A stretch of DNA of 64,000 nucleotides from Escherichia phage DCP548. Positions 804-59,883 of this stretch are shown one piece after another (the first letter of the stretch is position 1; each line of letters opens with the position of its first letter). Where the stretch lies: sequence record PQ671645.1, one strand, 5' to 3'. The position numbers were made by a program, and so were the translations under genes. The notes beneath the pieces were generated by a model, which saw only the letters and a list, made by a program, of their open reading frames with translations, did no database searches and was not told the DNA's origin.

Positions 804-1298
804 TCACAACTTATTAATATTTACTTTAATTCGCTTTCTTTTCTTGGAAGGAATTTGTTCTGGACCTTTATTTACGACTGCACCTGTAGTTGTTCCTGAT
901 GCAATAGCTTGAGGACTACCGCCTGAATCACCAGCAACCATATCCTCAAATAAAGGGAGTTCTTTAAATATTTCTTTCTGTTGTTCTTCAGTAATGTTAT
1001 AGCGTGAAGCTACAGCACTCCAGGCAGACATCATTGAGGCCATTCCATTAAGACCTGGAACGGTGCTCATCATTCGCTTCATTGAACGAACTGAAGCATG
1101 AAAAGGTGTATACGCAGCTTTCTCTTCGGGAGTAGAAGGACGTTTAAGAACACTTCCACGTTCATCGATGATTTTGGCTTCGTATGCTTTCCATTCGGTA
1201 AAAGGTTTTTGCATTAGTCGAATAAACTTATATGCATAAACAGAATCTATTGCAGTGTTAATAATACCCATAGGTACCTCCTGAGTATATTTAATCAA
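804..1298 (-). CDS. hypothetical protein (61.1-position ORF)
   Basis: 164-aa minus ORF in the 61-41 interval; start uncertain. Confidence 0.5.
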   Translation of the reverse strand: MIKYTQEVPMGIINTAIDSVYAYKFIRLMQKPFTEWKAYEAKIIDERGSVLKRPSTPEEKAAYTPFHASVRSMKRMMSTVPGLNGMASMMSAWSAVASRYNITEEQQKEIFKELPLFEDMVAGDSGGSPQAIASGTTTGAVVNKGPEQIPSKKRKRIKVNINKL

Positions 1299-1489: not shown

Positions 1490-2149
1490 TTAACCTCGAT
1501 TCATAAATGCATTAAATATTTGGTCATCAACAGAAATTTCTAATTCGACTTCAATTGCTTCAGCCTTTTCTTCAGGTGGTAATTCGTATCCACATACTAC
1601 AATTTTTTCATCAATATCAAAATATACAGAAGCAATATGATTAATGTTATTTTCGGTTAAGTCTAAATCAACATCAACATCTTTTTGACCTACACTTAAA
1701 GGATAACTAATACGGGTTATTTTATTATCTTTAACAAAGAGTCCACCGACATACTCTGTACTACGTTTGAAGTTTACACGTTTCCGAAATGAAAGATATG
1801 ATGCATCTTTACCGTGAGCTCGGCTCATAGGACATAATGAATAGCTAGAATAAGAGATGTCAAATCCTACACCTTCAATATGAGCCAACGTGTCATGAGT
1901 AAACCAATTATAATCATATGCCAAATCCATTAAATTATAATATGTGAAAGGCACCGGATTAACATCATATGTTGTACCTTTAAAATCTGCCCAGGCAACG
2001 ATTTCGTTATCTTTAACAATTACAAAAATTACACCAATATGATATCCTTTATTATTTTCATTCGGCGTTATATTATAACATTGTGCATTAGGAAATTTAC
2101 CATATTTAAATGGCGCATTTTTGTGCATATAATAAATCATATTATTCAC
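1490..2149 (-). CDS. hypothetical protein
   Basis: 219-aa minus ORF; no motif recognised. Confidence 0.5.
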   Translation of the reverse strand: MNNMIYYMHKNAPFKYGKFPNAQCYNITPNENNKGYHIGVIFVIVKDNEIVAWADFKGTTYDVNPVPFTYYNLMDLAYDYNWFTHDTLAHIEGVGFDISYSSYSLCPMSRAHGKDASYLSFRKRVNFKRSTEYVGGLFVKDNKITRISYPLSVGQKDVDVDLDLTENNINHIASVYFDIDEKIVVCGYELPPEEKAEAIEVELEISVDDQIFNAFMNRG

Positions 2150-2435
2150 CTGTGATTTCGGTTACGATATCTTTGTTATCGAAATTAGGGTCACAATACA
2201 AAACATAATTGTACTGCATGATACCACCGGACTTAAGTTGTTCAACAACTTTATTAACCATATTAGGACGGTCTCGTTTAGTGATGTTCATGATATCAGA
2301 GAAGATTTGTTGTTCAACATCTTCTTGATTTGCAGTCATTGACCACTCACAGAGGTCTTTATCATAACCTGCCGTAACTGGAGCTGGTGCACATGATACT
2401 GCAAGTAAGATTGCTGCCAATGATAACTTTTTCAT
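2142..2435 (-). CDS. sp: Spackle-like periplasmic superinfection-exclusion protein
   Basis: 97 aa with signal peptide MKKLSLAAILLAVSCAPAPVTA then GYDKDLCEWSMTA, matching remembered T4 Sp (61.3); same position between 61 and 41. Confidence 0.7.
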   Translation of the reverse strand: MKKLSLAAILLAVSCAPAPVTAGYDKDLCEWSMTANQEDVEQQIFSDIMNITKRDRPNMVNKVVEQLKSGGIMQYNYVLYCDPNFDNKDIVTEITGE

Positions 2436-2459
2436 TTTAACTCCTTAGTTGATTTGATA

Positions 2460-2494
2460 GGACTACTATACTATAGTCCATCTATAATGTAAAC
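2460..2494 (-). promoter_or_regulatory. early promoter with flanking inverted repeat, upstream of sp
   Basis: Minus GTTTAC, about 18 nt, TATAGT; inverted repeat GGACTA/TAGTCC around the -10. Confidence 0.5.
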
Positions 2495-2498
2495 AAGT

Positions 2499-2747
2499 TT
2501 ATTCTTTTTCGCGAATAATAATTACTTGTTGAGGCTGCTGAGCAGATTTCTTTTCGGCAACGATAGACCAAATTAAAGTTCCAATCCAACCAATCATCGT
2601 CCAGTTAAAGAGTAAAGATACAAAGAAGATTGCTGTTGTGCTTTTTGTGCCACGAATAAGCGCGATTACCCAAGGCAGCATGTAAATGATGATTGAACCA
2701 ATACCTGCGATTAAAACCGCTACTGAACTAGCTACGAATAATTCCAT
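2499..2747 (-). CDS. Imm-family superinfection immunity membrane protein
   Basis: 82 aa, two TM segments, YMLPWVIALIRG...NWTMIGWIGTLIWS resembles the Imm_superinfect family consensus. Confidence 0.55.
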   Translation of the reverse strand: MELFVASSVAVLIAGIGSIIIYMLPWVIALIRGTKSTTAIFFVSLLFNWTMIGWIGTLIWSIVAEKKSAQQPQQVIIIREKE

Positions 2748-2808
2748 GTTAATTTCCTCTTGATTTGTTATGTTTATAGTATCTTATTTTAACTTTGGTG
2801 TAAACCAA

Positions 2809-3177
2809 TTAATTAAATTTGTTTAAACGTTCAATACACTGGACGTAGTTATTTGCGATTTGTTTCTGGGTAGGCTCTTTACCAGTTGTTTCAACATAGC
2901 GAATGAATGCGATTTCAGTAGCCTGTAGACAATGTTCTTTAACGCGTTGTTCTTTTGACAATGCTACAGTATCAGAATCACGATAACGTTGAGCATGAGC
3001 ATCAGCTTGAATCATTCGATTACCTACAGTAACCGGGTCTTCCACTTCAACTTTAGGTTGGTTGTACTGTTTAACATTCGGGTTATAAATCAATTGGCCA
3101 ACATTATTAGGGATAAAGCCATGGGCACCACATCCGGTTAATCCAAATACCATTGCTAAAGCGATTAATTTTTTCAT
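2809..3177 (-). CDS. putative lipoprotein
   Basis: 122 aa; N-terminal MKKLIALAMVFGLTGC lipobox. Confidence 0.5.
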   Translation of the reverse strand: MKKLIALAMVFGLTGCGAHGFIPNNVGQLIYNPNVKQYNQPKVEVEDPVTVGNRMIQADAHAQRYRDSDTVALSKEQRVKEHCLQATEIAFIRYVETTGKEPTQKQIANNYVQCIERLNKFN

Positions 3178-3198
3178 TTCAATTTCCTCTGTAGTTGA

Positions 3199-3235
3199 TA
3201 GAAAGATAGTAACACATTATGTAGTGCTTGTAAAC
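3199..3235 (-). promoter_or_regulatory. early promoter upstream of lipoprotein gene
   Basis: Minus GTTTAC, about 18 nt, TACTAT. Confidence 0.4.
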
Positions 3236-3237
3236 AG

Positions 3238-3450
3238 CTATTTTAAACTTTTGCGAAATTTGCGTTTTTCTTGACGAATCTGTCGTTTAGTCGGACGTAC
3301 AGCAAATTTAACGAAGTCCACTTTGCCGTGTGGAAACTTTTCAGATGCTTCACAGTCCATCATTAGTTCCCATCCTTCCAGAATAAGAGCTTTCCATTGC
3401 GTAGTTGATGCAAATTCGTATGTCGATGGTTTAAACACAGTTGAATACAT
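3238..3450 (-). CDS. small basic protein, member of a three-copy paralog family
   Basis: 70 aa ending ...FAVRPTKRQIRQEKRKFRKSLK; same C-terminal motif as ORFs at 31248..31427 and 31852..32049. Confidence 0.5.
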   Translation of the reverse strand: MYSTVFKPSTYEFASTTQWKALILEGWELMMDCEASEKFPHGKVDFVKFAVRPTKRQIRQEKRKFRKSLK

Positions 3451-3451
3451 A

Positions 3452-3643
3452 TTATCCTCTTAAATCGGCTTCAAAAACTTTCTCGTCATTAACAAATGCT
3501 TTAACTAATGCTTTGTTCACTTCAGCAAGTTGTACCGCAACCCACTCGATTTCTTCGCGATCACCTGATAACATGATATCTTTAGTGAACATCTCGCCGC
3601 TTTTAAACCAACCGATAAAAGTAACTTTAGTTAATTTGCTCAT
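3452..3643 (-). CDS. dmd: Dmd-like antitoxin (discriminator of mRNA degradation)
   Basis: 63 aa, VTFIGWFK...AEVNKALVKAF resembles remembered T4 Dmd (61.5); position upstream of 61. Confidence 0.6.
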   Translation of the reverse strand: MSKLTKVTFIGWFKSGEMFTKDIMLSGDREEIEWVAVQLAEVNKALVKAFVNDEKVFEADLRG

Positions 3644-3957
3644 ATTTCCTCACAGAATGCCCATTCAGCATGATAAACTGTAGCACCTTTAGTATCATTC
3701 ATTTGAACTACATCTACCGGAGAAATTACTCGATAGAGTCGTGGTTCACCTCCATAAGAGCGTGCTGCTCGTCCTGCATAAATCTTTGCTAAACCGATAT
3801 CTTCAGTAAAGAATACACGATCCAAGTTTTTCTTACGTCCAGTTTCGGACAGAACTCCTGTTTCTTCAGGAGGACAAAGCATGTTTTCGATGTTAGCTGA
3901 ACTACTTGAACCGTGATAAAAAATCTTAAATTCTGCTTTACAATCGATGGTTTTCAT
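3640..3957 (-). CDS. Arr-like ADP-ribosyltransferase-fold protein
   Basis: 105 aa; FYHGS...RVFFT...YAGRAARSYGGEPRLYRV parallels rifampin-ADP-ribosyltransferase motifs (FYHGT ... IYFS ... YIYIVEP); own early promoter upstream. Confidence 0.45.
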   Translation of the reverse strand: MKTIDCKAEFKIFYHGSSSSANIENMLCPPEETGVLSETGRKKNLDRVFFTEDIGLAKIYAGRAARSYGGEPRLYRVISPVDVVQMNDTKGATVYHAEWAFCEEI

Positions 3958-3963
3958 TTTGTT

Positions 3964-4012
3964 CTCCAGTAGTTGATAGGTCTATAATAACACAACTACT
4001 GGAGAAGTAAAC
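3964..4012 (-). promoter_or_regulatory. early promoter with 12-bp inverted repeat, upstream of Arr-like gene
   Basis: Minus GTTTAC, 17 nt, TATTAT; perfect inverted repeat CTCCAGTAGTTG / CAACTACTGGAG flanks the -10. Confidence 0.55.
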
Positions 4013-4387
4013 TTAAAAATGTAATTTAGATACATCTGCGTTGATTTCACTTTGGTTTGCGTCATATGCAATTAAACGAACCGCTTTAGATGGGTCATTC
4101 AATGCATAGAAATGATGGAACATTGCTCGAACGATATCACCATTTACGAGTTCTACCTGGATAGGAGAACCTTTTTCGAGTTGGAAATGTTCATAAGCTT
4201 TGATGGTTCGCAGATAATCAAGTTTTTGATTTCCGGCTCCAACGATTTGTACGATACGTTTGCCCATGTTTTCCATACGAGATACAATAGTTTTAGGAGC
4301 AAGAATAACGTAGGTTGCCAGCGGAGAAACTACTTCAACAGTTGTGTTTTCGGTGATTGCAGTAAAAATTGCTTGAGACATATTCAT
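4013..4387 (-). CDS. hypothetical protein
   Basis: 124-aa minus ORF, ATG at 4387 with GAGAGG RBS; early promoter upstream. Confidence 0.5.
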   Translation of the reverse strand: MNMSQAIFTAITENTTVEVVSPLATYVILAPKTIVSRMENMGKRIVQIVGAGNQKLDYLRTIKAYEHFQLEKGSPIQVELVNGDIVRAMFHHFYALNDPSKAVRLIAYDANQSEINADVSKLHF

Positions 4388-4416
4388 AATGTTTTCCTCT
4401 CGGTTAGTGTAAGTAC

Positions 4417-4446
4417 ATCATATCATGCCTAGAGGGAGATGTAAAC
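4417..4446 (-). promoter_or_regulatory. early promoter upstream of ORF 4013..4387
   Basis: Minus GTTTAC, spacer, TGaTATGAT extended -10. Confidence 0.5.
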
Positions 4447-4453
4447 CCCGAAA

Positions 4454-4469
4454 GGAGACCGAAGTCTCC
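4454..4469 (-). other. intercistronic RNA hairpin with UUCG tetraloop
   Basis: GGAGAC-UUCG-GUCUCC on minus-strand RNA just after the gene 41 stop, directly upstream of an early promoter. Confidence 0.5.
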
Positions 4470-4475
4470 TTTTTA

Positions 4476-5918
4476 TTAAAATTTTAACTCATTGGCTAAG
4501 CTATCTAGGTCAGCACGTGTTGCTTTGGCTTTACCTACGCGTTCCGTACGATTCACCTCTGCCTGACGCATCTGAGCACCTGCGTTTTCATTTACTGTGT
4601 TAGGTGTGTTCATGCCTTCTTGCTCAATCTCAACCCATTTCTGATTGCCTTTACGTACACCCATCAGGAATTTATTCCACTTATTCTTATCACCATATCG
4701 TGATTTGATTTGTTTGATAAGTTGTTGTTCAGCTTGTGCAAGTTCTTCGGTTTCAATTACGGCCAACATGAAATCTGCCGTTGCTGGTAAACCTGCTGAT
4801 TCTGCAATATCGCTCATGTTCATATCCGAAGCATCCCATGCTGCACGTCCTACTTGAGCTGCAGTCCATAGAACTGTTTCAGATTCTACTGCTAATGCAC
4901 GAAGTTCTTCTGCGATAGCTTTAACTAATGTGTAACTATTTTCAGTGTAAACTCTGATGCGACAAGACCCACAAATACCTAAGTAATCAACCATGATTAC
5001 AGATGGCACAAAGTTCTTCTTGAGTTTCAATTCATTAAGCAATGCACGGAATGTATTAGCATTAGCTCCGCCAGTAGGATACTGTTTAACTACTAAACGT
5101 CCTAATGTGGATTTTGAACGCCATTTTTCCATCTTGGCTTTATATTCAGCATAAGATACGTTACCATCATCGATATCATCGAGCGATACGTCAAGCATAT
5201 TTGCATCTATACGCTTAGCACAAACTTCTTCAGCCATTTCCATGGAAATATAAAGAACATTATGTCCTGTTTGAAGATAATCTGCAGCAAGTGAACAAAG
5301 GCCTAAAGATTTACCAACGTTAACACCGGCCATTAAAACATTCAGTGTACCGGTTTCAGCACCACCTTTAGTGATTTTATTCAGAATGTTTAATTTGAAC
5401 GGGACCTTACGTGCTTTGTTCAGATAAGAAAGCCAGCGTGCTTCGTAGTCTTCCATCCAGTCGTGTCCAACATAACTATCAAACGAAATTGAAAGTGCTT
5501 GACGCATAATATCAGGAATAGCTCCTACGTCAGGCATTTTCTTGTTACGTTGTTCTGGAGGTAGTTCAGCATTAGACTGAATCTCAATGATTTTGGATGT
5601 AGCATTATACATCGCTTTTTGCTGGACATATTTCTCAGTTTCTTTAACCAACCATTCGTGGTCTTCAGGAGTATCAGCCAATTTTTCAATTAGGTCTGAA
5701 GTTCCTTTATATTCGGCTTCAGTTAAAGAACTGTTATCTAAAGCCACCTTTAATGCATTTATAGATGGCATTGCATTATATTCGTTAACGTGGCTCTTTA
5801 TAATTTTAAATACATTTTTTGCCGGTCCACGCTCAAAATACTCAGAATCCATATAAGGCCAGACCTTAGAAAAATAAGCCTGGTCATATACTAGATGAGA
5901 CAAAATAATTTCTACCAC
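4476..5918 (-). CDS. 41: replicative DNA helicase (DnaB-like) gp41
   Basis: 480 aa; Walker A GVNVGKS; size and synteny match T4 gp41. Confidence 0.93.
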   Translation of the reverse strand: MVEIILSHLVYDQAYFSKVWPYMDSEYFERGPAKNVFKIIKSHVNEYNAMPSINALKVALDNSSLTEAEYKGTSDLIEKLADTPEDHEWLVKETEKYVQQKAMYNATSKIIEIQSNAELPPEQRNKKMPDVGAIPDIMRQALSISFDSYVGHDWMEDYEARWLSYLNKARKVPFKLNILNKITKGGAETGTLNVLMAGVNVGKSLGLCSLAADYLQTGHNVLYISMEMAEEVCAKRIDANMLDVSLDDIDDGNVSYAEYKAKMEKWRSKSTLGRLVVKQYPTGGANANTFRALLNELKLKKNFVPSVIMVDYLGICGSCRIRVYTENSYTLVKAIAEELRALAVESETVLWTAAQVGRAAWDASDMNMSDIAESAGLPATADFMLAVIETEELAQAEQQLIKQIKSRYGDKNKWNKFLMGVRKGNQKWVEIEQEGMNTPNTVNENAGAQMRQAEVNRTERVGKAKATRADLDSLANELKF

Positions 5919-7533: not shown

Positions 7534-8082
7534 TTAACGAGCCCATTTGATAATTTCTGTAATCAAATTATTACGTTCGCTTGCATTAAATCCTATAACT
7601 TTGTTAGCACCATCATGATTAAGTAATTGATACGTTTGGATTTCGTTATGAATTGCAAACTCTTCAAAATATGAAATGACTGTATTAAAACCGAACGAAG
7701 ACAAAGTAATAAGGTCGTCTTCAAAACTTTCAGTCATTTCGTTACGTGTTAAAATAATTGTGAACACATCATGGTTTTGGCAAAGACGAACATAATCCTG
7801 TTCATAAACGTCAAGAACCGAGTCCGCATCTTGTCGAATACGTCCATAAACCCAGTTACTAATATATCCACGGTCTAACAGATAAATCTTAGTAGGGTCT
7901 AAATAATTCAACATCGTTTCGAAACAGCCAACTTCATTTCGAGACTTAACATCGAAACGTCCATCAACTGTTCGTTTAGGGAAATCAATCTTTACATATC
8001 TTTCACTAATTTCCATTATGTCATTAATGAAAGTTGTTTTACCAGCATTATCCGGGCCATCTACTAAAATAATTTTAGCCAT
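7534..8082 (-). CDS. P-loop kinase-like protein (dNMP/thymidylate-kinase-like fold)
   Basis: 182 aa; Walker A ILVDGPDNAGKTT and LLDRGYIS (DRY-like) motif; sits where T4 has beta-gt. Confidence 0.55.
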   Translation of the reverse strand: MAKIILVDGPDNAGKTTFINDIMEISERYVKIDFPKRTVDGRFDVKSRNEVGCFETMLNYLDPTKIYLLDRGYISNWVYGRIRQDADSVLDVYEQDYVRLCQNHDVFTIILTRNEMTESFEDDLITLSSFGFNTVISYFEEFAIHNEIQTYQLLNHDGANKVIGFNASERNNLITEIIKWAR

Positions 8083-8083
8083 T

Positions 8084-8983
8084 TTATTCCTCGATTACGA
8101 CATCTTCGTATTTAGGTATATTATACGGTGAAGAAATTAAAGCATTAAAGTAGATGAACTCACCAAGACCTGGATGGAATACTTCTTCAGGATTTTCGAA
8201 ATATTGAATCTTCGGACGTCCTTTAAGAATTTGATAGTACTCAGTTTTAGTTGGATTAAAAATTCGAATCAGCGCTTCTTCAGGATACTTATTTCTGTCG
8301 AAACTATTATTTGGATCAGTTATATAAAGCGGTTGACCTAATTGAATTGCGCATTCAACCACTTGTTCAAAACGATAGCATGGGTCACTAATTCGAAATG
8401 GATGAAAAATACCATCTAGATGAATAGGAGCCAAATCACCTACAAGACGCTGCATGACGGAAGGACGTATAACTTTCTGTGTTACGATAATCTTATTACC
8501 ATCCGCACCAGCGTTAACCAGCACTTCTTTTTGACGTTCATTCAACACAGTTGTTTGAAGTGAACGATTAACCGACAACATATCGGTTTTTAAGAATTCG
8601 TCAATATAAAAACGTGGTTTATTAGGGTCTGCGGTGATATTGAAATTGAATTCTACGTCAAAAGTGCCGTCATATCCAGTGATATCTGTGATTAGAAAAT
8701 CACAATCATAATAAGCAATTAATGAATCAACCACAAATTCATTTTCAGACCAGAAATATTTACGAGTGTTATACGCGTTATCTTTATACCATAATGGAAC
8801 AAACTTAAATTCCGGAAAAAGACGTTCACATTCTTTAATATCAGATGCATTACGTGGATATGTAATCACATCACCTGGATTAGCACGGTGCAAATGAAGT
8901 TGGAAGTTGCCATCCTTAAGGATAGCATACTGTCCAGTTTCATAAGACCGCATACTCAAGATAGGTACGCGGAAAATAGCCAT
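8084..8983 (-). CDS. hypothetical protein, candidate DNA sugar transferase (unsupported by motif)
   Basis: 299-aa ORF tightly coupled to gene 42 stop; no motif recognised; candidate role only by position in the glucosyltransferase slot. Confidence 0.45.
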   Translation of the reverse strand: MAIFRVPILSMRSYETGQYAILKDGNFQLHLHRANPGDVITYPRNASDIKECERLFPEFKFVPLWYKDNAYNTRKYFWSENEFVVDSLIAYYDCDFLITDITGYDGTFDVEFNFNITADPNKPRFYIDEFLKTDMLSVNRSLQTTVLNERQKEVLVNAGADGNKIIVTQKVIRPSVMQRLVGDLAPIHLDGIFHPFRISDPCYRFEQVVECAIQLGQPLYITDPNNSFDRNKYPEEALIRIFNPTKTEYYQILKGRPKIQYFENPEEVFHPGLGEFIYFNALISSPYNIPKYEDVVIEE

Positions 8984-9699
8984 TAGTCAAGGAATCCTTT
9001 AACATAATCAAAATCACGTTCAAACACATGGGCACTTACCATGGTATGAGTATAATCACCAACTTCTACACCGCATTCGTTAGCGATATAATGAAGTAAT
9101 TTTCCTTGGAGATAAAAATCCAACTGCATAACAACAGCACAGTTCTGAGAACGCATATGACAGTGGGTATAAAGCTTACCATCACGAATATAATAAGTCA
9201 CTGAGTCAGTACATGGATATTCAAGCGTTTCATCCGAATCAAGCAAAGCCTGATCTGAACTTTCAAGAATTTGAAACACAACTCTTCGTGAATTAGGTTT
9301 CTCTTTAAGTTCTTTGAGAAGAGCTGGTAACTGGGCCGCAATTCGTGGACCATAGAAAGTGTTGAAGTTCGCCGGCAAAACATCTGATTTTGGTTTAGAA
9401 ATAAATTTAGCGACATTAGGATACGCCTTAAACGCTTCTTCTGCGTTGGTACCACCAGAAATCATAAACTTCCAGAAATCTTCAGCATATTCATAAGAGA
9501 TGCGATTAATACGTGGGTCGGTCATTTTGAATGATGAAGGGGTATCAACAACTACTGTCATAGACCCAATTTCATTACAACGTCCAATACGAGAATCAGT
9601 TACGAATTCCGGGTTTTCTAAAATTTCACGATTGACAGCTTTAAATGCGGATTGAAAATCTGCGGCTTTAATATATTTCATTGTGTTATGTTTTCCCAT
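8983..9699 (-). CDS. 42: deoxycytidylate 5-hydroxymethyltransferase gp42 (thymidylate-synthase family)
   Basis: 238 aa; TS-family core RRVVFQ and catalytic Cys context YPCTDSVTYY; synteny. Confidence 0.8.
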   Translation of the reverse strand: MGKHNTMKYIKAADFQSAFKAVNREILENPEFVTDSRIGRCNEIGSMTVVVDTPSSFKMTDPRINRISYEYAEDFWKFMISGGTNAEEAFKAYPNVAKFISKPKSDVLPANFNTFYGPRIAAQLPALLKELKEKPNSRRVVFQILESSDQALLDSDETLEYPCTDSVTYYIRDGKLYTHCHMRSQNCAVVMQLDFYLQGKLLHYIANECGVEVGDYTHTMVSAHVFERDFDYVKGFLD

Positions 9700-9717
9700 G
9701 TTTACCTCAATACAGTT

Positions 9718-9741
9718 ATTATATACTCAATTCATAAAGCT
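9718..9741 (-). promoter_or_regulatory. middle-type promoter candidate upstream of gene 42
   Basis: Minus strand aAGCTTTA, 11 nt, TATAAT. Confidence 0.4.
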
Positions 9742-9880
9742 TATTTGAATTTCTTAGCGATGTTGATATAACGTAAAGCTTCAGCATCGATACTTCCAAG
9801 AACACTATGAAGAAATGCATCAGCGTAGTATTCTAGTTGAACAGGTTTCTTTAATCACTTTAGCCGCTTTAGTTTCAAAC

Positions 9881-9900
9881 AGGCCCATAAGGGCCTTTTT
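9881..9900 (+). terminator. terminator-like hairpin in plus-strand orientation (possibly bidirectional)
   Basis: AGGCCC-ATAA-GGGCCT followed by TTTTT on the plus strand, inside a 278-bp gap without a convincing ORF. Confidence 0.4.
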
Positions 9901-9977
9901 AAGAATTTGTTCGTTGCTGTTAATTTTCGTAGTCAAAATCTCTTCGTTAAGTTGGTGGTTAAAAGTTTTTCTAGAAA

Positions 9978-11138
9978 TCATTCTGGGTACCTCAAAGCGT
10001 CGTCAGAGTTAGTTATATCAATAATAGATATAGAATTTTCTGATAACCCATTTTTAGATAACTGACGTTTATAATATCTTTCACAATATGTACACGTCGT
10101 CCCGCAGATTTCATTAGCACAATCGAAATCTGGATGTTTGAACCACCTTTTTTCTAAAAAGCCATCTAACAAAGAGGTTTCAATATTTACCGTATGTGAA
10201 AACTCGGTCTCATTTTCAAGAGTGAAAATGGTCTCTAAAGGCTTCCACAATTCCAACAAATTACCTTCAAATTTTTCAGAAGCATAAGCTTCAAGAACTT
10301 TCAAAATGTAGTCTGTGCTACCTGTACGTCCTGAAACTTTGAATTGAGTGATACCAATATCATTATAAAGTTTCAAATCTTGAGGACGAACAAAACGAGT
10401 TCTCAACCAGTTAAATGGGTCTGTATCACGAGCTTTAATACAGTGCTGCATAGGATATCCGTTTAAGGATTTAGCATCATCAGCTGTAACATCAGTACTA
10501 TGGAAAATATAGCAAGAGTCACGATAGCTACAATGTGTTGTATACCCTTTACCAGCATTAGAACAGAACTCATTTACAAGAACTTCAAATATTATATTGT
10601 TCTTATTACAAAACTCTGCTGCACGCTTCAGGAAAGAAACTGAACGGTTCTTATGAATTCCACAGCAGACCTTTTTGATATTATATTGGTCGTGCAAGTA
10701 TTTGATTTGAGTTACAGCATCGACATGTAGAATTGTTGAAACTTCAATCTCAATGTCTTTATTGACTTCACGAACAATTTCCATAACAACAGGGTTAGCG
10801 ATAGTAATACGCCATACGCCTATTGACCAAAGATACTGAACATAATCCTGAATAGCTTTCTTCTTCCACTCAACTAGTTCTCTTTTTGAACCAGGATTTA
10901 TCGTGTTGAGTGTATAGTTAAAGCAAATACCTAATTCGTTACAACGTTTAACGTAATCTTCTAACATCTTTTTGTCAACGTCAGGAAGCCTAAAATCAGG
11001 TCTGGCTGCTACAAAAGCCATTTCTCTTGTAGAGCCGTATACTTCATTTATCAAGCTATTAGGATAAGTTTTATTGAGCTCTACGATTTTATCAAGAAGA
11101 GCTAAATCAAAATTCGTTCCGATTTTAAAGGTATTCAT
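9978..11138 (-). CDS. Cys-rich enzyme of unknown function (possible Fe-S protein)
   Basis: 386 aa; C-terminal FDCANEICGTTCTYC (C-x4-C-x3-C-x2-C) plus EFCSNAGKGYTTHCSYRDSC; first gene downstream of the sugar-pathway genes. Confidence 0.5.
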   Translation of the reverse strand: MNTFKIGTNFDLALLDKIVELNKTYPNSLINEVYGSTREMAFVAARPDFRLPDVDKKMLEDYVKRCNELGICFNYTLNTINPGSKRELVEWKKKAIQDYVQYLWSIGVWRITIANPVVMEIVREVNKDIEIEVSTILHVDAVTQIKYLHDQYNIKKVCCGIHKNRSVSFLKRAAEFCNKNNIIFEVLVNEFCSNAGKGYTTHCSYRDSCYIFHSTDVTADDAKSLNGYPMQHCIKARDTDPFNWLRTRFVRPQDLKLYNDIGITQFKVSGRTGSTDYILKVLEAYASEKFEGNLLELWKPLETIFTLENETEFSHTVNIETSLLDGFLEKRWFKHPDFDCANEICGTTCTYCERYYKRQLSKNGLSENSISIIDITNSDDALRYPE

Positions 11139-11192
11139 TTTTGCATCTCGCGTTAATTGTTGCGATGGTTTTTGCAGGTCTTACTTAAATTA

Positions 11193-11594
11193 TTATAGAT
11201 TCGGTTTATATGATTTAAATGTTTCGAATTCGCCTTTATTCATAAGAGCTTTGAATTCGTCAGGACGCATAGCTTTGTCGTCGATAATCCAATCATATAC
11301 TGGTTTATGTGTTAGCAAATTATGGTACTTCAAGCCAATGTTTGCCAAGTTCTGAATCAGACTTGGGAGAATGTCAATTGCTATACGGCCAGGACCTACT
11401 GACTTCATACCGCGAGCAGTGTAAAGCGTTATTGTATGCCCTGCATCATACAGGGCATTAATGGCAGACACCATTTCGACGTCTGGTTTGAAGTTCACGT
11501 AATCACGATTGTTATTCCACTCTGTTATACAATCATCGACATCAAAACAAAGATTAAGCATGTTTTCTACACGGTGCATTAGATTCGTTCCCAT
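11193..11594 (-). CDS. HAD-superfamily phosphatase, KdsC-like
   Basis: 133 aa; motif I FDVDDCI, later TARG and K...DD motifs. Confidence 0.6.
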   Translation of the reverse strand: MGTNLMHRVENMLNLCFDVDDCITEWNNNRDYVNFKPDVEMVSAINALYDAGHTITLYTARGMKSVGPGRIAIDILPSLIQNLANIGLKYHNLLTHKPVYDWIIDDKAMRPDEFKALMNKGEFETFKSYKPNL

Positions 11595-13264
11595 TGATGA
11601 GTGATATCGCCACCGATTGGACGATAGGAAACACCAGTTTCTTTATCAGTTAGTACCCATTTACCAGGATTTTTTGTAATCAGAGTAGCCGTTACAGGTT
11701 CTGCTACGTCATAACTAATAGAGCCGTCCTGAAGTACACGGCCCATGTTACGTAATTGCTTAGTCAGAAGTTCCATACCTTTATAATATGCGGCTACCGC
11801 TTTAAGTGGATTATTCTTGAAATAACCACCTAATGCAATCCAGATAATTGCCACTGCCAAATGATGATACTCGTTAAACGAACTCATCTTTCCATATTTG
11901 TAAACTAATGGATTGATGTTAATAGTCACATTACAAGTTGTTTCATCAATAGTAAATTGCCCCCAGGTCGGATTAGCATTGAATTCATCATAACCTGAAA
12001 CAGCATAAAGCACTTTAGCTTCATCATACAATTTTGGCCCATAAATCTTGGTTTCGCCAAAATATCCACGAGGGTCGATAAACTTGACTTCACCATTATC
12101 AGTAATCATAGTATTACTAAAGTTCGGGTCACCATGAATAACAGAGTACTGTCCCTGAGAACGGTTATGATAACGAATAAGGTGTTCTAAAGCTTGTTTC
12201 AGCATTGGCTTCAGACGCCCAATCTTAGTGTAGTTCACATGTGTGATTTTACCAAATGAATCAATCAATGGTTGAATACTTTCACAACGATCAATAACTT
12301 TCGTATAGAACTCTTTAGTGAAATCACGACGAACAGTTTCAGGACTTACAAAATAAGTGTCTGTGCTGAATTTCAGTGCGTCTAAAATTGCATCAACAAT
12401 TTGTGGACGAGCAAGACTTGATTTGGATTTAATATATTCAAATGCCGGCTTACCTTTAATGCGTTCCATTTCAAAGTTATTTTCATTAACAGAAACTAAC
12501 TGAGGAACTGAATCTGATTTCACTTTAAGATACCATGAAATCTCATCTTTCTGAAGAGCTCGGCCCTGTTCGGTTAATGCGAATTTAGTTACAGTTTCTT
12601 CACCGATTTCAACTGCATTAAAACTACGATTAAGTTCACGAACTTCATGAGCCTTTTCAAGTTTAGGCATATCACCTAAATCAATTAGATTCATAAGCTC
12701 TGATTTATTGAATGCGCTGCCGTAAAGGAATTCTACGAAATCACGTCCTTTGCAGTATTCATGAATTTCCTCATCAGTAGAACCCATATAGAATTCCCAG
12801 TCTTTGAACTGATAAATTCCTACAACATTACCACCTGTTGAACCTACGTTAGTGATATTTTCACCGTCGAAATTATATCGACATTCGTCACCCTTAACAT
12901 AGATTGCGTTAACATTCCAAGACCATGAACCAAAATCGGGAATAATATCACACCAGTTAACAATTACATTATGGCCGTCTAAATCTTTGTGCAATTTAGC
13001 AAGAGCATAAGCAGAACCATATGCTTCATCAACTGTACGAATAGTCACATTGAACCCTTCTTGCTCACAATAAGCTCGAACAGTTTCAGCAAATTTTGAA
13101 TGAACTACTACAATAATTTCGTCTGCGCCAAGGTCAGAATAAATTGTATACAAATTGCTCAGAATAGTGTCTTGTTTATAGTTAACAAGCACCTTAGGAA
13201 TATGATGCGTTATTGGATACAAACGAGTTGCCAGTCCAGCACCAAGAATAACAGCTTTTTTCAT
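11579..13264 (-). CDS. bifunctional sugar-1-phosphate nucleotidyltransferase / kinase (LicC-LicA-like fusion)
   Basis: 561 aa; N-terminal ILGAGLATRLYPIT...PK (GxGxRL nucleotidyltransferase signature); C-terminal HGDPNFSN and FIDPRG (Brenner and DFG-like kinase motifs). Confidence 0.65.
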   Translation of the reverse strand: MKKAVILGAGLATRLYPITHHIPKVLVNYKQDTILSNLYTIYSDLGADEIIVVVHSKFAETVRAYCEQEGFNVTIRTVDEAYGSAYALAKLHKDLDGHNVIVNWCDIIPDFGSWSWNVNAIYVKGDECRYNFDGENITNVGSTGGNVVGIYQFKDWEFYMGSTDEEIHEYCKGRDFVEFLYGSAFNKSELMNLIDLGDMPKLEKAHEVRELNRSFNAVEIGEETVTKFALTEQGRALQKDEISWYLKVKSDSVPQLVSVNENNFEMERIKGKPAFEYIKSKSSLARPQIVDAILDALKFSTDTYFVSPETVRRDFTKEFYTKVIDRCESIQPLIDSFGKITHVNYTKIGRLKPMLKQALEHLIRYHNRSQGQYSVIHGDPNFSNTMITDNGEVKFIDPRGYFGETKIYGPKLYDEAKVLYAVSGYDEFNANPTWGQFTIDETTCNVTININPLVYKYGKMSSFNEYHHLAVAIIWIALGGYFKNNPLKAVAAYYKGMELLTKQLRNMGRVLQDGSISYDVAEPVTATLITKNPGKWVLTDKETGVSYRPIGGDITHQWERI

Positions 13265-13305
13265 GTTGTGGTCCTCATTGGTAAGTAGGAGTATTGTACA
13301 CTATT

Positions 13306-13449
13306 CTAGTTAAAGCATTCATACTTTGCTTGTAGTCCAATCATAATCCATCCAATTACAAGTGTTGGAATCATTACCGGAGCCGTTAAGCTCCAGTAGA
13401 TAGTCATGACAAGCATCAATAGTAAAAGTCCTATTGTTATTGCTTTCAT
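13306..13449 (-). CDS. small hydrophobic peptide (47 aa)
   Basis: Hand-found: ATG overlaps the isomerase stop (ATGA); MKAITIGLLLLMLVMTIYWSLTAPVMIPTLVIGWIMIGLQ...; below ORF-track size cut-off. Confidence 0.35.
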   Translation of the reverse strand: MKAITIGLLLLMLVMTIYWSLTAPVMIPTLVIGWIMIGLQAKYECFN

Positions 13450-14081
13450 TGTTCGCCTCGTAACATGGCACCTAGTGCACCGCCAGGGTGGAACTTAAGG
13501 AAATCATTAGAGGTAAATCCACGTTCAGACGAAAGGTTGATAGCAAACGTATCGATAAGCGCTAACAACAATGTAGTGGACATTGTCGGAGCTAAAGAGT
13601 TCTCGTCAACTTCTACAGCGATACCGGTACAGAACGTATAATCAAAAAGAGCTTCGTATTCTTGTGGAATGTCAGGGTTACAATGCAACAGAATCTGTTT
13701 GACGTTCGGACGAATCATTTTAAGATGCTTAGCCACGCCTATCATTTCTTCAGTTTTACCAGAACGACTAATATGAATCAACACATCATTAGGCGCAATG
13801 AATCCTGCATCACCGTGAGAATAATGCCCGGTGTTCAAGTACATACTCGGGATACCGAGTGAAGCAAATGTCTCAGAAGCTTTAGTTGCGATATTAGCGT
13901 TCTTACCAACACCTGTAATAATTACACGACTTTCATAATTACTAAGTCCAGGGCGTCGAAGAGTTTCTAGAATAGCATTATAACGAGCAGGGTTTTGACT
14001 AATTACTTTGGCCATAGCGGCCAAAGAAGAAGCTTGTTTTATGATTGCGTCAATAGCGATAGTAATAGGAGTAGTTTTCAT
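13446..14081 (-). CDS. SIS-domain sugar-phosphate isomerase, arabinose-5-phosphate isomerase-like (KdsD/GutQ)
   Basis: 211 aa; GVGKNANIATK SIS motif and C-terminal FHPGGALG characteristic of KdsD/GutQ. Confidence 0.7.
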   Translation of the reverse strand: MKTTPITIAIDAIIKQASSLAAMAKVISQNPARYNAILETLRRPGLSNYESRVIITGVGKNANIATKASETFASLGIPSMYLNTGHYSHGDAGFIAPNDVLIHISRSGKTEEMIGVAKHLKMIRPNVKQILLHCNPDIPQEYEALFDYTFCTGIAVEVDENSLAPTMSTTLLLALIDTFAINLSSERGFTSNDFLKFHPGGALGAMLRGEQ

Positions 14082-58659: not shown

Positions 58660-59052
58660 TTATTTTGGCATATCATCAATTTGCTCTCGACGCCGACGCC
58701 ATAGATTAATCGCTTCATAAACACATTCTGCGTTTGGTATATGACGGCAATAATATAATGATTCGCGTTTCTGGAACCGATGTTGTAATGGAATTTCGTT
58801 TAAAAGGTCTTTACGATCAAAGTATTCAAAACTAGTTAACCCAGAACGATTTTTAAGGAACTTCCAATGGCCAAATTCATTTTGGAAATAAACGTAATCA
58901 GCGTGTTGATATAACGAATTAATCAACCGGTCGGAAATAACTGTATCCTGTTCATTAAAATAAAACGTTAAATCATGAACTACCAGATAAATATTACCTT
59001 TCATATTTTCCTCACTTAAAGTTGGTCGAGACAGAAGGATTCTAACCTTCAC
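58660..59052 (-). CDS. hypothetical protein
   Basis: 130-aa minus ORF next to the homing-endonuclease-like gene. Confidence 0.4.
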   Translation of the reverse strand: MKVRILLSRPTLSEENMKGNIYLVVHDLTFYFNEQDTVISDRLINSLYQHADYVYFQNEFGHWKFLKNRSGLTSFEYFDRKDLLNEIPLQHRFQKRESLYYCRHIPNAECVYEAINLWRRRREQIDDMPK

Positions 59053-59083
59053 CTTTAACCTTAGAATGATTATATGCTATCCA

Positions 59084-59752
59084 TTACACTATAGAAGCAA
59101 TTAAATTGTTTACTTTATCATCTTTATAAACTTCAGAATAGTGGAGTTCATAAATTTCCCAGCCCAGGGATTTTATAATATCATGTCTTTCCTGATAATA
59201 TGGGGCCAGAATTTTCTTGTTATGATCGGAGTAATGTTGGTTACCGTTAACTTCAATAATTATTTTCTTATCCATCAAAGCAATGTCACAGGAATATGCT
59301 CTATTTTTAACAGGTTGATATTCCTCAACAAATTGTATATTTGCTTCTATTAATTTATTTTTCAAAAATTCGCACGGAACAGATTTGAATTTTGAATTCT
59401 TTTTCCAAGGGTGTTTATCTGGATTTTCCTTTAACCAGGTCTTCCGGGCTGCTGATATCTTTTGTTTGGATTCAGACGAATGCTTTCGTCCTGTGCCTGC
59501 AGCAGACAATTTTTCTCTTGTTTCTTCAGAAACAACTAAAGAAATGCCCTTCTTTTTGGCAACCATGAATTGATTTAAATTACCAGATTCTTTGCGTGCT
59601 TTATTCATAGCAGCGACTGCATTTTTAGAACCCTCTTTATAAGAGGCGAGTTTTGGATTTTCAGAACACCATCTGGTATGACTTGCCATCCATCCCTTTG
59701 GTTTATCAGAAATATCAAATTCTTTATTGCAGTGTTTGCAGATGCTCATCAA
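59084..59752 (-). CDS. homing-endonuclease-like protein (zinc finger + NUMOD3-like repeats + DUF559/PD-(D/E)xK-like C-terminus)
   Basis: 222 aa; N-terminal CKHC...HTRWC; SEETREKLSAAGTGRK and SESKQKISAARK NUMOD3-like repeats; C-terminal YSCDIALMDKKIIIEVNGNQHY. Confidence 0.5.
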   Translation of the reverse strand: MMSICKHCNKEFDISDKPKGWMASHTRWCSENPKLASYKEGSKNAVAAMNKARKESGNLNQFMVAKKKGISLVVSEETREKLSAAGTGRKHSSESKQKISAARKTWLKENPDKHPWKKNSKFKSVPCEFLKNKLIEANIQFVEEYQPVKNRAYSCDIALMDKKIIIEVNGNQHYSDHNKKILAPYYQERHDIIKSLGWEIYELHYSEVYKDDKVNNLIASIV

Positions 59753-59808: not shown

Positions 59809-59883
59809 TGGTGACCCTGGCTGGTTTCGATCCAGCTACCTATCAGTTATGAGCTGACAGCTCTCCCATTGAGCTACAGGGCC
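59809..59883 (-). tRNA. tRNA, anticodon CAU (Met or Ile2), with encoded CCA
   Basis: Hand-folded cloverleaf on minus strand: acceptor GGCCCTG/CAGGGTC, D-arm GCTC-AATGGGA-GAGC, anticodon loop CTCATAA, T-arm GCTGG-ATCGAAA-CCAGC, 3' ACCA. Confidence 0.7.

Follow-up and report, generated by a model that had tools for sequence, protein, structure and literature searches.

In the periplasm, Spackle (Sp) inhibits gp5, the tail lysozyme of superinfecting phage; Dmd is an antitoxin against the host RNase toxins RnlA and LsoA. The 41-61 interval of phage T4 contains dmd, 61.4, sp, 61.2 and 61.1, sp standing directly after 61.4 as it also does in Dhakavirus IME08, and imm.1 followed by imm is found at another site, between genes 43 and 42, with imm just downstream of gene 43. 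Imm blocks the translocation of DNA; a 2026 preprint attributes this to its binding of the tape-measure protein gp29 and gives R33 and W50 as residues needed for exclusion by T4 Imm (bioRxiv 10.64898/2026.03.06.709160). Short intergenic cassettes termed PeSLs, carrying the promoter TTTACW-N17-TAYWAT, lie between non-essential early genes in the hyperplastic region (Arbiol et al. 2010, PMC2839356; Comeau et al. 2014, PMC4122927). In phage RB69 (NC_004928), sp, imm, imm.1, 61.4 and dmd stand side by side as RB69p035-p039, and the RB69 annotation of 2003 already gives these genes, their order and an 'imm-42 intercistronic' ORF; the finding described here is correct but already known.

We analyzed a 64,000-nt stretch of Escherichia phage DCP548 (PQ671645.1), hereafter the window, which comes from an RB69/HX01-like Mosigvirus and shares 98% nucleotide identity with Mosigvirus genomes. 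Primase gene 61 (window <764) and helicase gene 41 (4476-5918) bracket the sp-to-dmd segment, whose five named genes lie on the minus strand throughout: sp (spackle; 2142-2435, 97 aa), imm (2499-2747, 82 aa), imm.1 (2809-3177, 122 aa), a 61.4 homologue (3238-3450, 70 aa) and dmd (3452-3643, 63 aa). An earlier note on this DNA had placed a cluster of exclusion and antitoxin genes in the 61-41 interval; the location holds, and the ORFs it gave at 2142-2435, 2499-2747, 2809-3177 and 3452-3643 are all present exactly, on the minus strand. The 70-aa ORF was absent from its list. Gene order, orientation and spacing are identical to those in RB69, with proteins of the block about 94-100% identical between the two phages (Dmd, 93.7%), whereas the ORF upstream of the primase is a single 164-aa frame in the window and two ORFs in RB69. 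The block is common to ~150 other Mosigvirus genomes. Plus-strand ORFs of the region are short and overlap the minus-strand genes; an Rfam search of the region found no RNA family, and an NCBIfam search of its small ORFs gave no useful match.

All five genes are orthologous to T4 genes, at 33-66% protein identity. T4 shares the dmd-61.4-sp-61.2 order and strand, the imm.1-then-imm order and the early promoter type, but only in the window is the imm.1-imm pair inserted between 61.4 and sp. The window also has a promoter in the imm.1/imm gap, which is 11 bp and promoter-free in T4, and two additional genes (105 aa and 124 aa) between 41 and dmd, while it keeps at the old imm locus the small ORF that lies downstream of T4 imm. 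We consider it very probable that this is an RB69-type variable early region in which imm.1 and imm moved as a unit from the post-43 site to the 61.4/sp junction in Mosigvirus.

The Sp protein matches the Spackle family over the whole profile (PF25676, positions 1-96/96; 145 bits, cut-off 27, E=1.1e-42) as well as the Spackle structures 6X6O/7CN6 in the PDB (E=1.4e-39). It is 66% identical to T4 Sp, has a hydrophobic N-terminus (residues 4-24) together with Cys29 and Cys81, and is identical in the alignment at S32-A35, Q37 and N76, the residues by which T4 Spackle contacts gp5 (PMC7677548). These features identify it as a member of the T4 Spackle family in which a putative export signal, the cysteines of the Cys29-Cys81 disulfide and the gp5-contact residues are kept. 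Directly downstream, the flanking counter-defense gene 61.2, or adfA (anti-DarT factor A; 1490-2128, minus strand), encodes a PF23813 protein (E=2e-121) that would counter DarT1. Counting from MHKNAPF, its residue 164, a position with a role taken from PMC11257639, is histidine in the window and arginine in RB69.

The 82-aa protein matches PF14373, Imm_superinfect (57.2 bits, cut-off 27.9, E=1.5e-15), and phrog_1039 (E=1e-30), and its alignment to T4 Imm (65% identity, 83 columns, E=3e-37) runs the whole length of the protein. The aligned part takes in the helix at the N-terminus and the QVIIIREKE tail at the C-terminus, hydrophobic segments occupy residues 1-34 and 40-59, and the residues R33 and W50 of T4 Imm are the same in the window protein. 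We take it to be the orthologue of T4 Imm, the inner-membrane superinfection immunity protein. No second copy of imm or imm.1 exists in the whole window; each is single-copy.

The neighboring 122-aa protein exceeds the threshold for DUF5481 (PF17578; 37.3 bits, cut-off 27) and aligns with T4 Imm.1, the product of the gene upstream of T4 imm, at 32-33% identity (E=1e-18), which marks it as the Imm.1 homologue. Its lipobox LTGC with Cys16 agrees with the lipoprotein that the earlier note had predicted here, and further cysteines lie at positions 83 and 114. A k-mer search with Imm.1 as its single query found only 3 proteins; a profile search found 27. The AlphaFold model of Imm.1 is poor (pLDDT 62), its confident part being only a C-terminal helical hairpin. 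Imm.1 is far more diverged from its T4 counterpart than its neighbors are from theirs, so that imm.1 may have come from another source. The 124-aa ORF at 4013-4387 was also considered as Imm.1 and discarded, having no similarity to the T4 protein, which the 122-aa lipoprotein matches instead.

The 63-aa protein matches PF17587 over its full length (76 bits, cut-off 27, E=3e-21), PDB entry 5I8J at ~94% identity (E=1.2e-35) and 5HY3 chain B, 'Antitoxin Dmd' (E=7.6e-18), and is assigned as Dmd, a predicted RnlA/LsoA antitoxin. The 70-aa ORF belongs to DUF7279 (PF23945, E=3.5e-20) and is 57% identical to T4 gp61.4. The Spackle-like, Imm-family and Dmd-like calls of the earlier note are borne out by Pfam matches far above chance, with which PHROGs agrees, and by the alignments to T4 proteins that it had proposed (Sp, Imm and gp61.4); the 82-aa and 63-aa proteins, whose unrelatedness to Imm and Dmd would have spoken against it, are related to Imm and to Dmd, respectively.

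Upstream of dmd and outside the range of that note, a 105-aa ORF (3640-3957, minus strand) ends in an overlap of its stop with the dmd start (3640-3643). It has no Pfam, NCBIfam or PDB sequence match. Its AF2 model (pLDDT 83) returned rifampin ADP-ribosyltransferase 2HW2/9IAF as top Foldseek matches (prob 1.00, TM 0.60, E=0.012), and residues H15, Y60 and E103, candidate counterparts of the H-Y-E/D triad, are invariant among 24 homologues. On the strength of the model, the ORF is predicted to encode an Arr-like mini ADP-ribosyltransferase.

The case for a move comes from comparing both sites across genomes. Gene 43 is closely followed by imm in five genomes (T4, P896, AnYang, Merlin and Roth76), which represent T4, the genera Gaprivervirus, Dhakavirus and Moonvirus, and a T4-like phage of Klebsiella, and nothing separates 61.4 from sp in T4 and IME08. 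In the window the 43-42 interval contains neither imm nor imm.1, and imm stands between 61.4 and sp rather than at its T4 site, a difference of synteny that does not define the family. A 47-aa membrane ORF is still present between genes 43 and 42 (13306-13449, minus strand), matching by tblastn the ORF overlapping the stop of imm in T4 (E=8e-14) and its P896 equivalent (E=8e-17); the corresponding RB69ORF054c is annotated as 'similar to T4 42-imm intercistronic region'. Because imm is missing from between 43 and 42 while the ORF that overlapped its stop stays there, relocation is supported, and the earlier suggestion that imm had moved gains both the absence from 43-42, set against its presence there in five other lineages, and a remnant at the old site. 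The comparison supports the imm.1-imm pair, rather than imm alone, as the probable moved unit, with sp and dmd at their ancestral positions.

Promoter sequences offer a plausible route. The genes sp, imm and imm.1 have one T-even early promoter each (GTTTACA-N17-TAYNRT), all on the minus strand: GTTTACA-N17-TATAGT at 2465-2494 for sp, and GTTTACA-N17-TACTAT both between imm.1 and imm (2776-2805) and upstream of imm.1 (3206-3235). Across the window GTTTACW-N17-TAYNRT occurs 12 times where 0.16 matches are expected, each time on the minus strand, and 4/12 fall within 2465-4446. Five intergenic gaps hold five minus-strand early promoter-like sites within 2 kb, and the cassettes have a common TATCAACTAC leader. 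The claim that each gene of the cluster has promoter-like elements stands for sp, imm and the lipoprotein gene but not for dmd, which has no promoter of its own; the nearest upstream promoter-like site (TTTACT-16-TATTAT, 3984-4011, minus strand) precedes the 105-aa ORF and probably drives a 105aa-dmd-61.4 operon. A 14-bp hairpin at 3957-4011 encloses this site and pairs the Shine-Dalgarno region (dG -21.5 kcal/mol, z = -5.7).

The window consensus agrees with that of the T4/PST PeSLs (PMC4122927), and the cassettes are likewise short and intergenic, separating early genes that are non-essential within a hyperplastic region. Behind gene 41 the cassette combines a promoter with a terminator-like hairpin, GGAGAC-TTCG-GTCTCC followed by T's, and the sp promoter has a small hairpin around its -10 element (dG -15 kcal/mol, z = -2.25, weak). 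The imm and imm.1 promoters, in contrast, lack a stem-loop of significance (z = +0.07 and +1.0) and are therefore not complete PeSLs. We aligned the promoter cassettes of the window, T4, IME08, AnYang and P896 in an attempt to locate breakpoints. The best cross-genome match of the imm.1 promoter is the one that precedes imm after gene 43 in Dhakavirus AnYang (local score 32; the other cross-genome pairs score 7-26), but the cassettes are both too similar to one another and too diverged, and cross-genome scores differ only modestly, so that recombination breakpoints were not placeable; in blastn, the window junction of the 61.4 end with the imm.1 promoter matches the T4 junction of the 61.4 end with the sp promoter at only 70.6% over 85 nt.

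Three other accounts deserve weight. It is unlikely that imm.1-imm was acquired horizontally from a T-even-like phage during co-infection and that the post-43 copy was lost separately. T-even phages do recombine freely in mixed infections, the heavily remodeled 43-42 interval (kinase-like, sugar-phosphate isomerase and nucleotidyltransferase-like genes) could have deleted imm, and Imm.1 is unusually diverged from T4 Imm.1 (33%). Yet Imm at 65% identity to T4 matches its vertically inherited neighbors Sp (66%) and UvsX (68%), a similarity of divergence consistent with vertical inheritance and a later move within the genome; no Imm of a closer donor type appeared, identities falling into bands of 95-100% and then <=66%, with one record at 80-90%; and Dhakavirus AnYang, with a similar sugar-modification cluster, still has imm after gene 43. 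We attach least credence to the reading in which the 82-aa protein is a generic Imm_superinfect member with another role and the phage lacks a true imm. The PF14373 domain is short, with 42 positions, and occurs in many phages and bacteria that are unrelated, and phages that are not T4-like give weak matches at 35-42% identity. Against this reading, the 82-aa protein keeps full-length similarity to T4 Imm through helix and tail, R33 and W50, and the same lipoprotein neighbor as T4 imm, and it is single-copy.

That the cluster is a selected, co-regulated 'defence/anti-defence island', mobile as a unit rather than a passive hyperplastic region, seems to us highly improbable. Sp, Imm, Dmd and AdfA are indeed neighbors, with a predicted mini ADP-ribosyltransferase besides, and promoters are dense, with 5 early promoter-like sites in 2 kb. 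However, the contents of the interval differ by genus: Jiaodavirus KpV477 has sp but no annotated dmd, IME08 is without annotated 61.2/adfA, and the T4 41-61 interval holds neither an ADP-ribosyltransferase-like gene nor imm. No integrase, repeat or boundary features were found in the region, and independent promoters, with none for dmd itself, mean that the cluster is not one operon. The whole block has so far been seen in no unrelated genomic setting, which also argues against an island.

On the reading that we favor, a move of imm.1-imm within the Mosigvirus lineage, gene identities, synteny and promoter motifs come from sequence, biochemical functions from the literature, and the route of the move is inferred. 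The 41-61 interval of T-even phages would be transcribed leftward, from the minus strand, soon after infection. Exported Spackle would inhibit the gp5 of a second phage in the periplasm, and inner-membrane Imm, adjoined by lipoprotein Imm.1, would block DNA translocation, while Dmd would neutralize RnlA/LsoA and AdfA would act against DarT1. With sp, 61.4 and dmd at their ancestral places, the imm.1-imm pair, probably with its own promoter, would have inserted into the 61.4/sp intergenic promoter region, leaving behind, at the old site, the small membrane ORF overlapping the stop codon of imm. The likely mechanism is recombination between ~60-bp early-promoter cassettes, a PeSL-type modular shuffling.

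The pairing of the two genes outlasts such rearrangement. A lipoprotein gene flanks imm in 6/6 lineages examined despite changes of order, tblastn records for Imm and Imm.1 number 153 and 154 at the Mosigvirus level and 502 and 502 at the T4 level, and the genes co-occur one-to-one in ~650 genomes. Because of this linkage (pairing in six Tevenvirinae lineages, joint relocation in Mosigvirus and one-to-one co-occurrence), we tentatively raise the idea, on balance doubtful, that Imm.1 is a functional partner of Imm in exclusion. Periplasmic or anchored in the membrane, it could assist Imm in intercepting the tail tube or the tape-measure protein as they enter. Separately, and likewise doubtful, the 105-aa Arr-like protein may be an active mini ADP-ribosyltransferase in a counter-defense operon with Dmd.

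The block recurs in ~150 sequenced relatives and adds little new biology. It does provide a clear and well-delimited case of module shuffling in a T-even hyperplastic region, in which a two-gene module probably moved ~10 kb and now lies beside the exclusion gene sp, and the strict imm.1-imm linkage suggests a testable role for an uncharacterized lipoprotein.

About 150 complete phage genomes match the first 6 kb of the window across ≥80% of the query length, with identities of 95-99%. The closest are Escherichia phages TU01, NHEP29 and HX01 (~98% identity), and HX01 is classified as Straboviridae, Tevenvirinae, Mosigvirus (the RB69 group); RB69 counterparts of the region's proteins are 94-100% identical. 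All genes of the region, from helicase gene 41 (5918-4476) to primase gene 61 (<764, running off the window start), are encoded on the minus strand and hence transcribed towards lower coordinates. Their order is 41, 124-aa ORF, 105-aa ORF, dmd, 61.4, imm.1, imm, sp, 61.2 (adfA), 65-aa ORF, 164-aa ORF, 61. The T4 reference genome reads 43, imm.1, imm, 42 and, separately, 41, dmd, 61.4, sp, 61.2, 61.1, 61. The C-terminal ~50 aa of the 164-aa ORF (804-1298, minus strand) resemble T4 gp61.1; the RB69 reference has two separate ORFs here (RB69p031, p032), the cause being a frameshift between the two phages or else a sequencing or annotation discrepancy affecting one of the genomes. The window also carries two minus-strand tRNA genes, at 59032-59093 and 59812-59883 (Rfam RF00005, 37.6 and 59.4 bits).

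An ORF listing found the genes of the earlier note exactly where it had placed them. All four that it named (a Spackle-like protein, an Imm-family protein, a lipoprotein and a Dmd-like antitoxin) are present, and PHROGs and Pfam names agree for their products; its list omitted a 70-aa ORF (3450-3238, minus strand; DUF7279) that is 57% identical to T4 gp61.4. The sp product (2435-2142, minus strand; 97 aa) matches the Pfam T4_Spackle profile (145 bits, E=1.1e-42) and can be aligned over its full length with the T4 Spackle crystal structure (6X6O, E=1.4e-39), bearing out the Spackle assignment. Its N-terminus is hydrophobic, Cys29 and Cys81 are present, and it keeps S32-A35, Q37 and N76, the residues through which T4 Spackle contacts the gp5 lysozyme (PMC7677548). 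The 82-aa protein (2747-2499, minus strand) is indeed related to Imm, matching Imm_superinfect (57.2 bits, E=1.5e-15) and T4 Imm at 65% identity along the full 83-column alignment (E=3e-37). Two stretches of the protein are hydrophobic, and it retains the residues at T4 R33 and W50, which weaken exclusion when mutated; Imm has been reported to bind the tape-measure protein gp29 (2026 preprint, bioRxiv 10.64898/2026.03.06.709160). Upstream, the 122-aa lipoprotein (3177-2809, minus strand; DUF5481, 37.3 bits) has an LTGC lipobox and, at 32% identity (E=1e-18), is by alignment a homologue of T4 Imm.1, whose N-terminal sequence is MKIAILVIALGLAGC. Dmd acts as an antitoxin to RnlA and LsoA, and kinship of the 63-aa protein (3643-3452, minus strand) to it is confirmed by Pfam Dmd (76 bits, E=3e-21) and two solved Dmd structures, 5I8J (E=1.2e-35, 59/63 residues identical) and 5HY3 chain B ('Antitoxin Dmd').

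The earlier note had further suggested that imm was relocated, and comparison across lineages upholds this. By tblastn, imm and imm.1 each occur once in the whole window. Between uvsX and gene 43 (7534-14081, minus strand) there is no imm; this interval includes gene 42 (dCMP hydroxymethylase-like, 238 aa) and genes for kinase-like (182 aa), nucleotidyltransferase/kinase-like (561 aa), arabinose-5-phosphate-isomerase-like (sugar-phosphate isomerase, 211 aa), peptidase-like (386 aa) and 133-aa proteins, a cluster that is presumably the RB69 arabinosyl-hmC DNA modification pathway. In Gaprivervirus P896, Moonvirus Merlin and Klebsiella phage Roth76, imm lies directly downstream of gene 43, as it does in Dhakavirus AnYang despite a sugar cluster similar to the window's. 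Dhakavirus IME08, like T4, has 61.4 followed by sp with nothing between. These placements indicate that the position next to gene 43 is ancestral and that the one between 61.4 and sp arose in Mosigvirus.

A footprint of the old imm locus remains. In T4 and P896, a 47-49-aa membrane ORF starts at the imm stop codon (the T4 reference record leaves it unannotated). The window retains a homologue (E=8e-14 and 8e-17), a 47-aa membrane ORF at 13449-13306 (minus strand; MKAITIGLLLLMLVMTIYWSLTAPVMIPTLVIGWIMIGLQAKYECFN) that adjoins the isomerase gene downstream of 43, in a 4-nt start/stop overlap with this upstream gene. Imm is about as diverged from T4 (65% identity) as are Sp (66%) and UvsX (68%), a divergence more consistent with relocation within the genome than with recent acquisition from elsewhere.

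The unit that moved is imm.1-imm. In each of the six lineages examined imm has a lipoprotein gene beside it, and the encoded lipoproteins share a lipobox and an N-terminal motif; this neighbour lies downstream of imm in P896 and AnYang and upstream in the other four (T4, Merlin, Roth76 and the window). Across the phage collection, Imm yielded 153 records at ≥95% identity and 502 at 60-80%, and Imm.1 154 at ≥95% and 502 at <60%; in records common to both lists the coordinates are adjacent, as in ESh29 (148432-148680 and 148691-149065) and AlbertHofmann (89796-90041 and 90106-90471).

Five intergenic gaps hold five minus-strand sigma-70-like sites (4445-4417, 4011-3984, 3234-3206, 2804-2776 and 2493-2465). 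A stricter pattern, GTTTACW-N17-TAYNRT, matches 12 times in 64 kb (0.16 expected) and only on the minus strand, with four of the matches within 2465-4446; it equals the promoter consensus (TTTACW-N17-TAYWAT) of the T4/PST promoter-early stem-loop (PeSL) cassettes (PMC4122927). Every cassette begins at the stop codon of the preceding gene; a TATCAACTAC leader is common to many of them. Whereas 11 bp separate imm.1 from imm in T4, a 61-bp promoter cassette does so here. Among cross-genome pairs, the imm.1 promoter is most similar to the post-gene-43 promoter of AnYang (score 32 versus 7-26 for the other pairs), which suggests that the module moved together with its promoter. Recombination between promoter cassettes, as in the PeSL mechanism (PMC2839356), could have driven the move; by this analogy it is only plausible, since cassette alignments across genomes could not fix the breakpoints and no stem-loops were found in the imm and imm.1 cassettes.

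Promoter-like elements, which the earlier note ascribed to each gene, precede sp, imm and the lipoprotein gene; dmd and 61.4 have none of their own. The stop codon of the 105-aa ORF (3957-3640, minus strand) overlaps dmd, and 61.4 begins 2 nt beyond the end of dmd, so the three probably form one operon. The 105-aa ORF has no Pfam, NCBIfam or PDB sequence match, is strongly conserved among T4-like phages of many hosts (H15, Y60 and E103 invariant), and likewise lies upstream of dmd in IME08; no homologue is annotated in the T4 41-61 interval. Its AF2 model (pLDDT 83) best matches the rifampin ADP-ribosyltransferase Arr in Foldseek (2HW2/9IAF, prob 1.00, TM 0.60), followed by other ADP-ribosylating toxins, and we predict an Arr-like mini ADP-ribosyltransferase; some RefSeq records already label homologues 'ADP-ribosyl transferase'. 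At 3957-4011 (minus strand), the Shine-Dalgarno region of this gene and the spacer of the gene's own promoter form a hairpin with a perfect 14-bp stem (dG -21.5 kcal/mol, z = -5.7). The ribosome-binding site would be sequestered in read-through transcripts from upstream and free in locally initiated ones. Directly after gene 41 (4388-4475, minus strand), a GC-rich hairpin (GGAGAC-TTCG-GTCTCC), a run of T's and a GTTTACA-N17-TATGAT promoter form a textbook PeSL-like terminator-plus-promoter in front of the 124-aa ORF (phrog_10668).

At residue 164 of AdfA (gp61.2, anti-DarT factor A), His is reported to neutralise DarT1 and Arg not to (PMC11257639). The window's AdfA (1490-2128, minus strand) has His164 whereas RB69 AdfA has Arg164, so this phage, unlike RB69, may resist DarTG1.

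The arrangement is already known from the RB69 reference record, which labels RB69p035-p039 as sp, imm, imm.1, 61.4 and dmd and RB69ORF054c as 'similar to T4 42-imm intercistronic region'. We found no explicit discussion of imm relocation in the literature, although it is evident from the RB69 annotation. The original observation and its relocation reading are correct with three refinements, namely that imm.1-imm is the moved unit, that dmd lacks its own promoter and that a footprint persists at the old locus; the feature itself is ordinary and already annotated.
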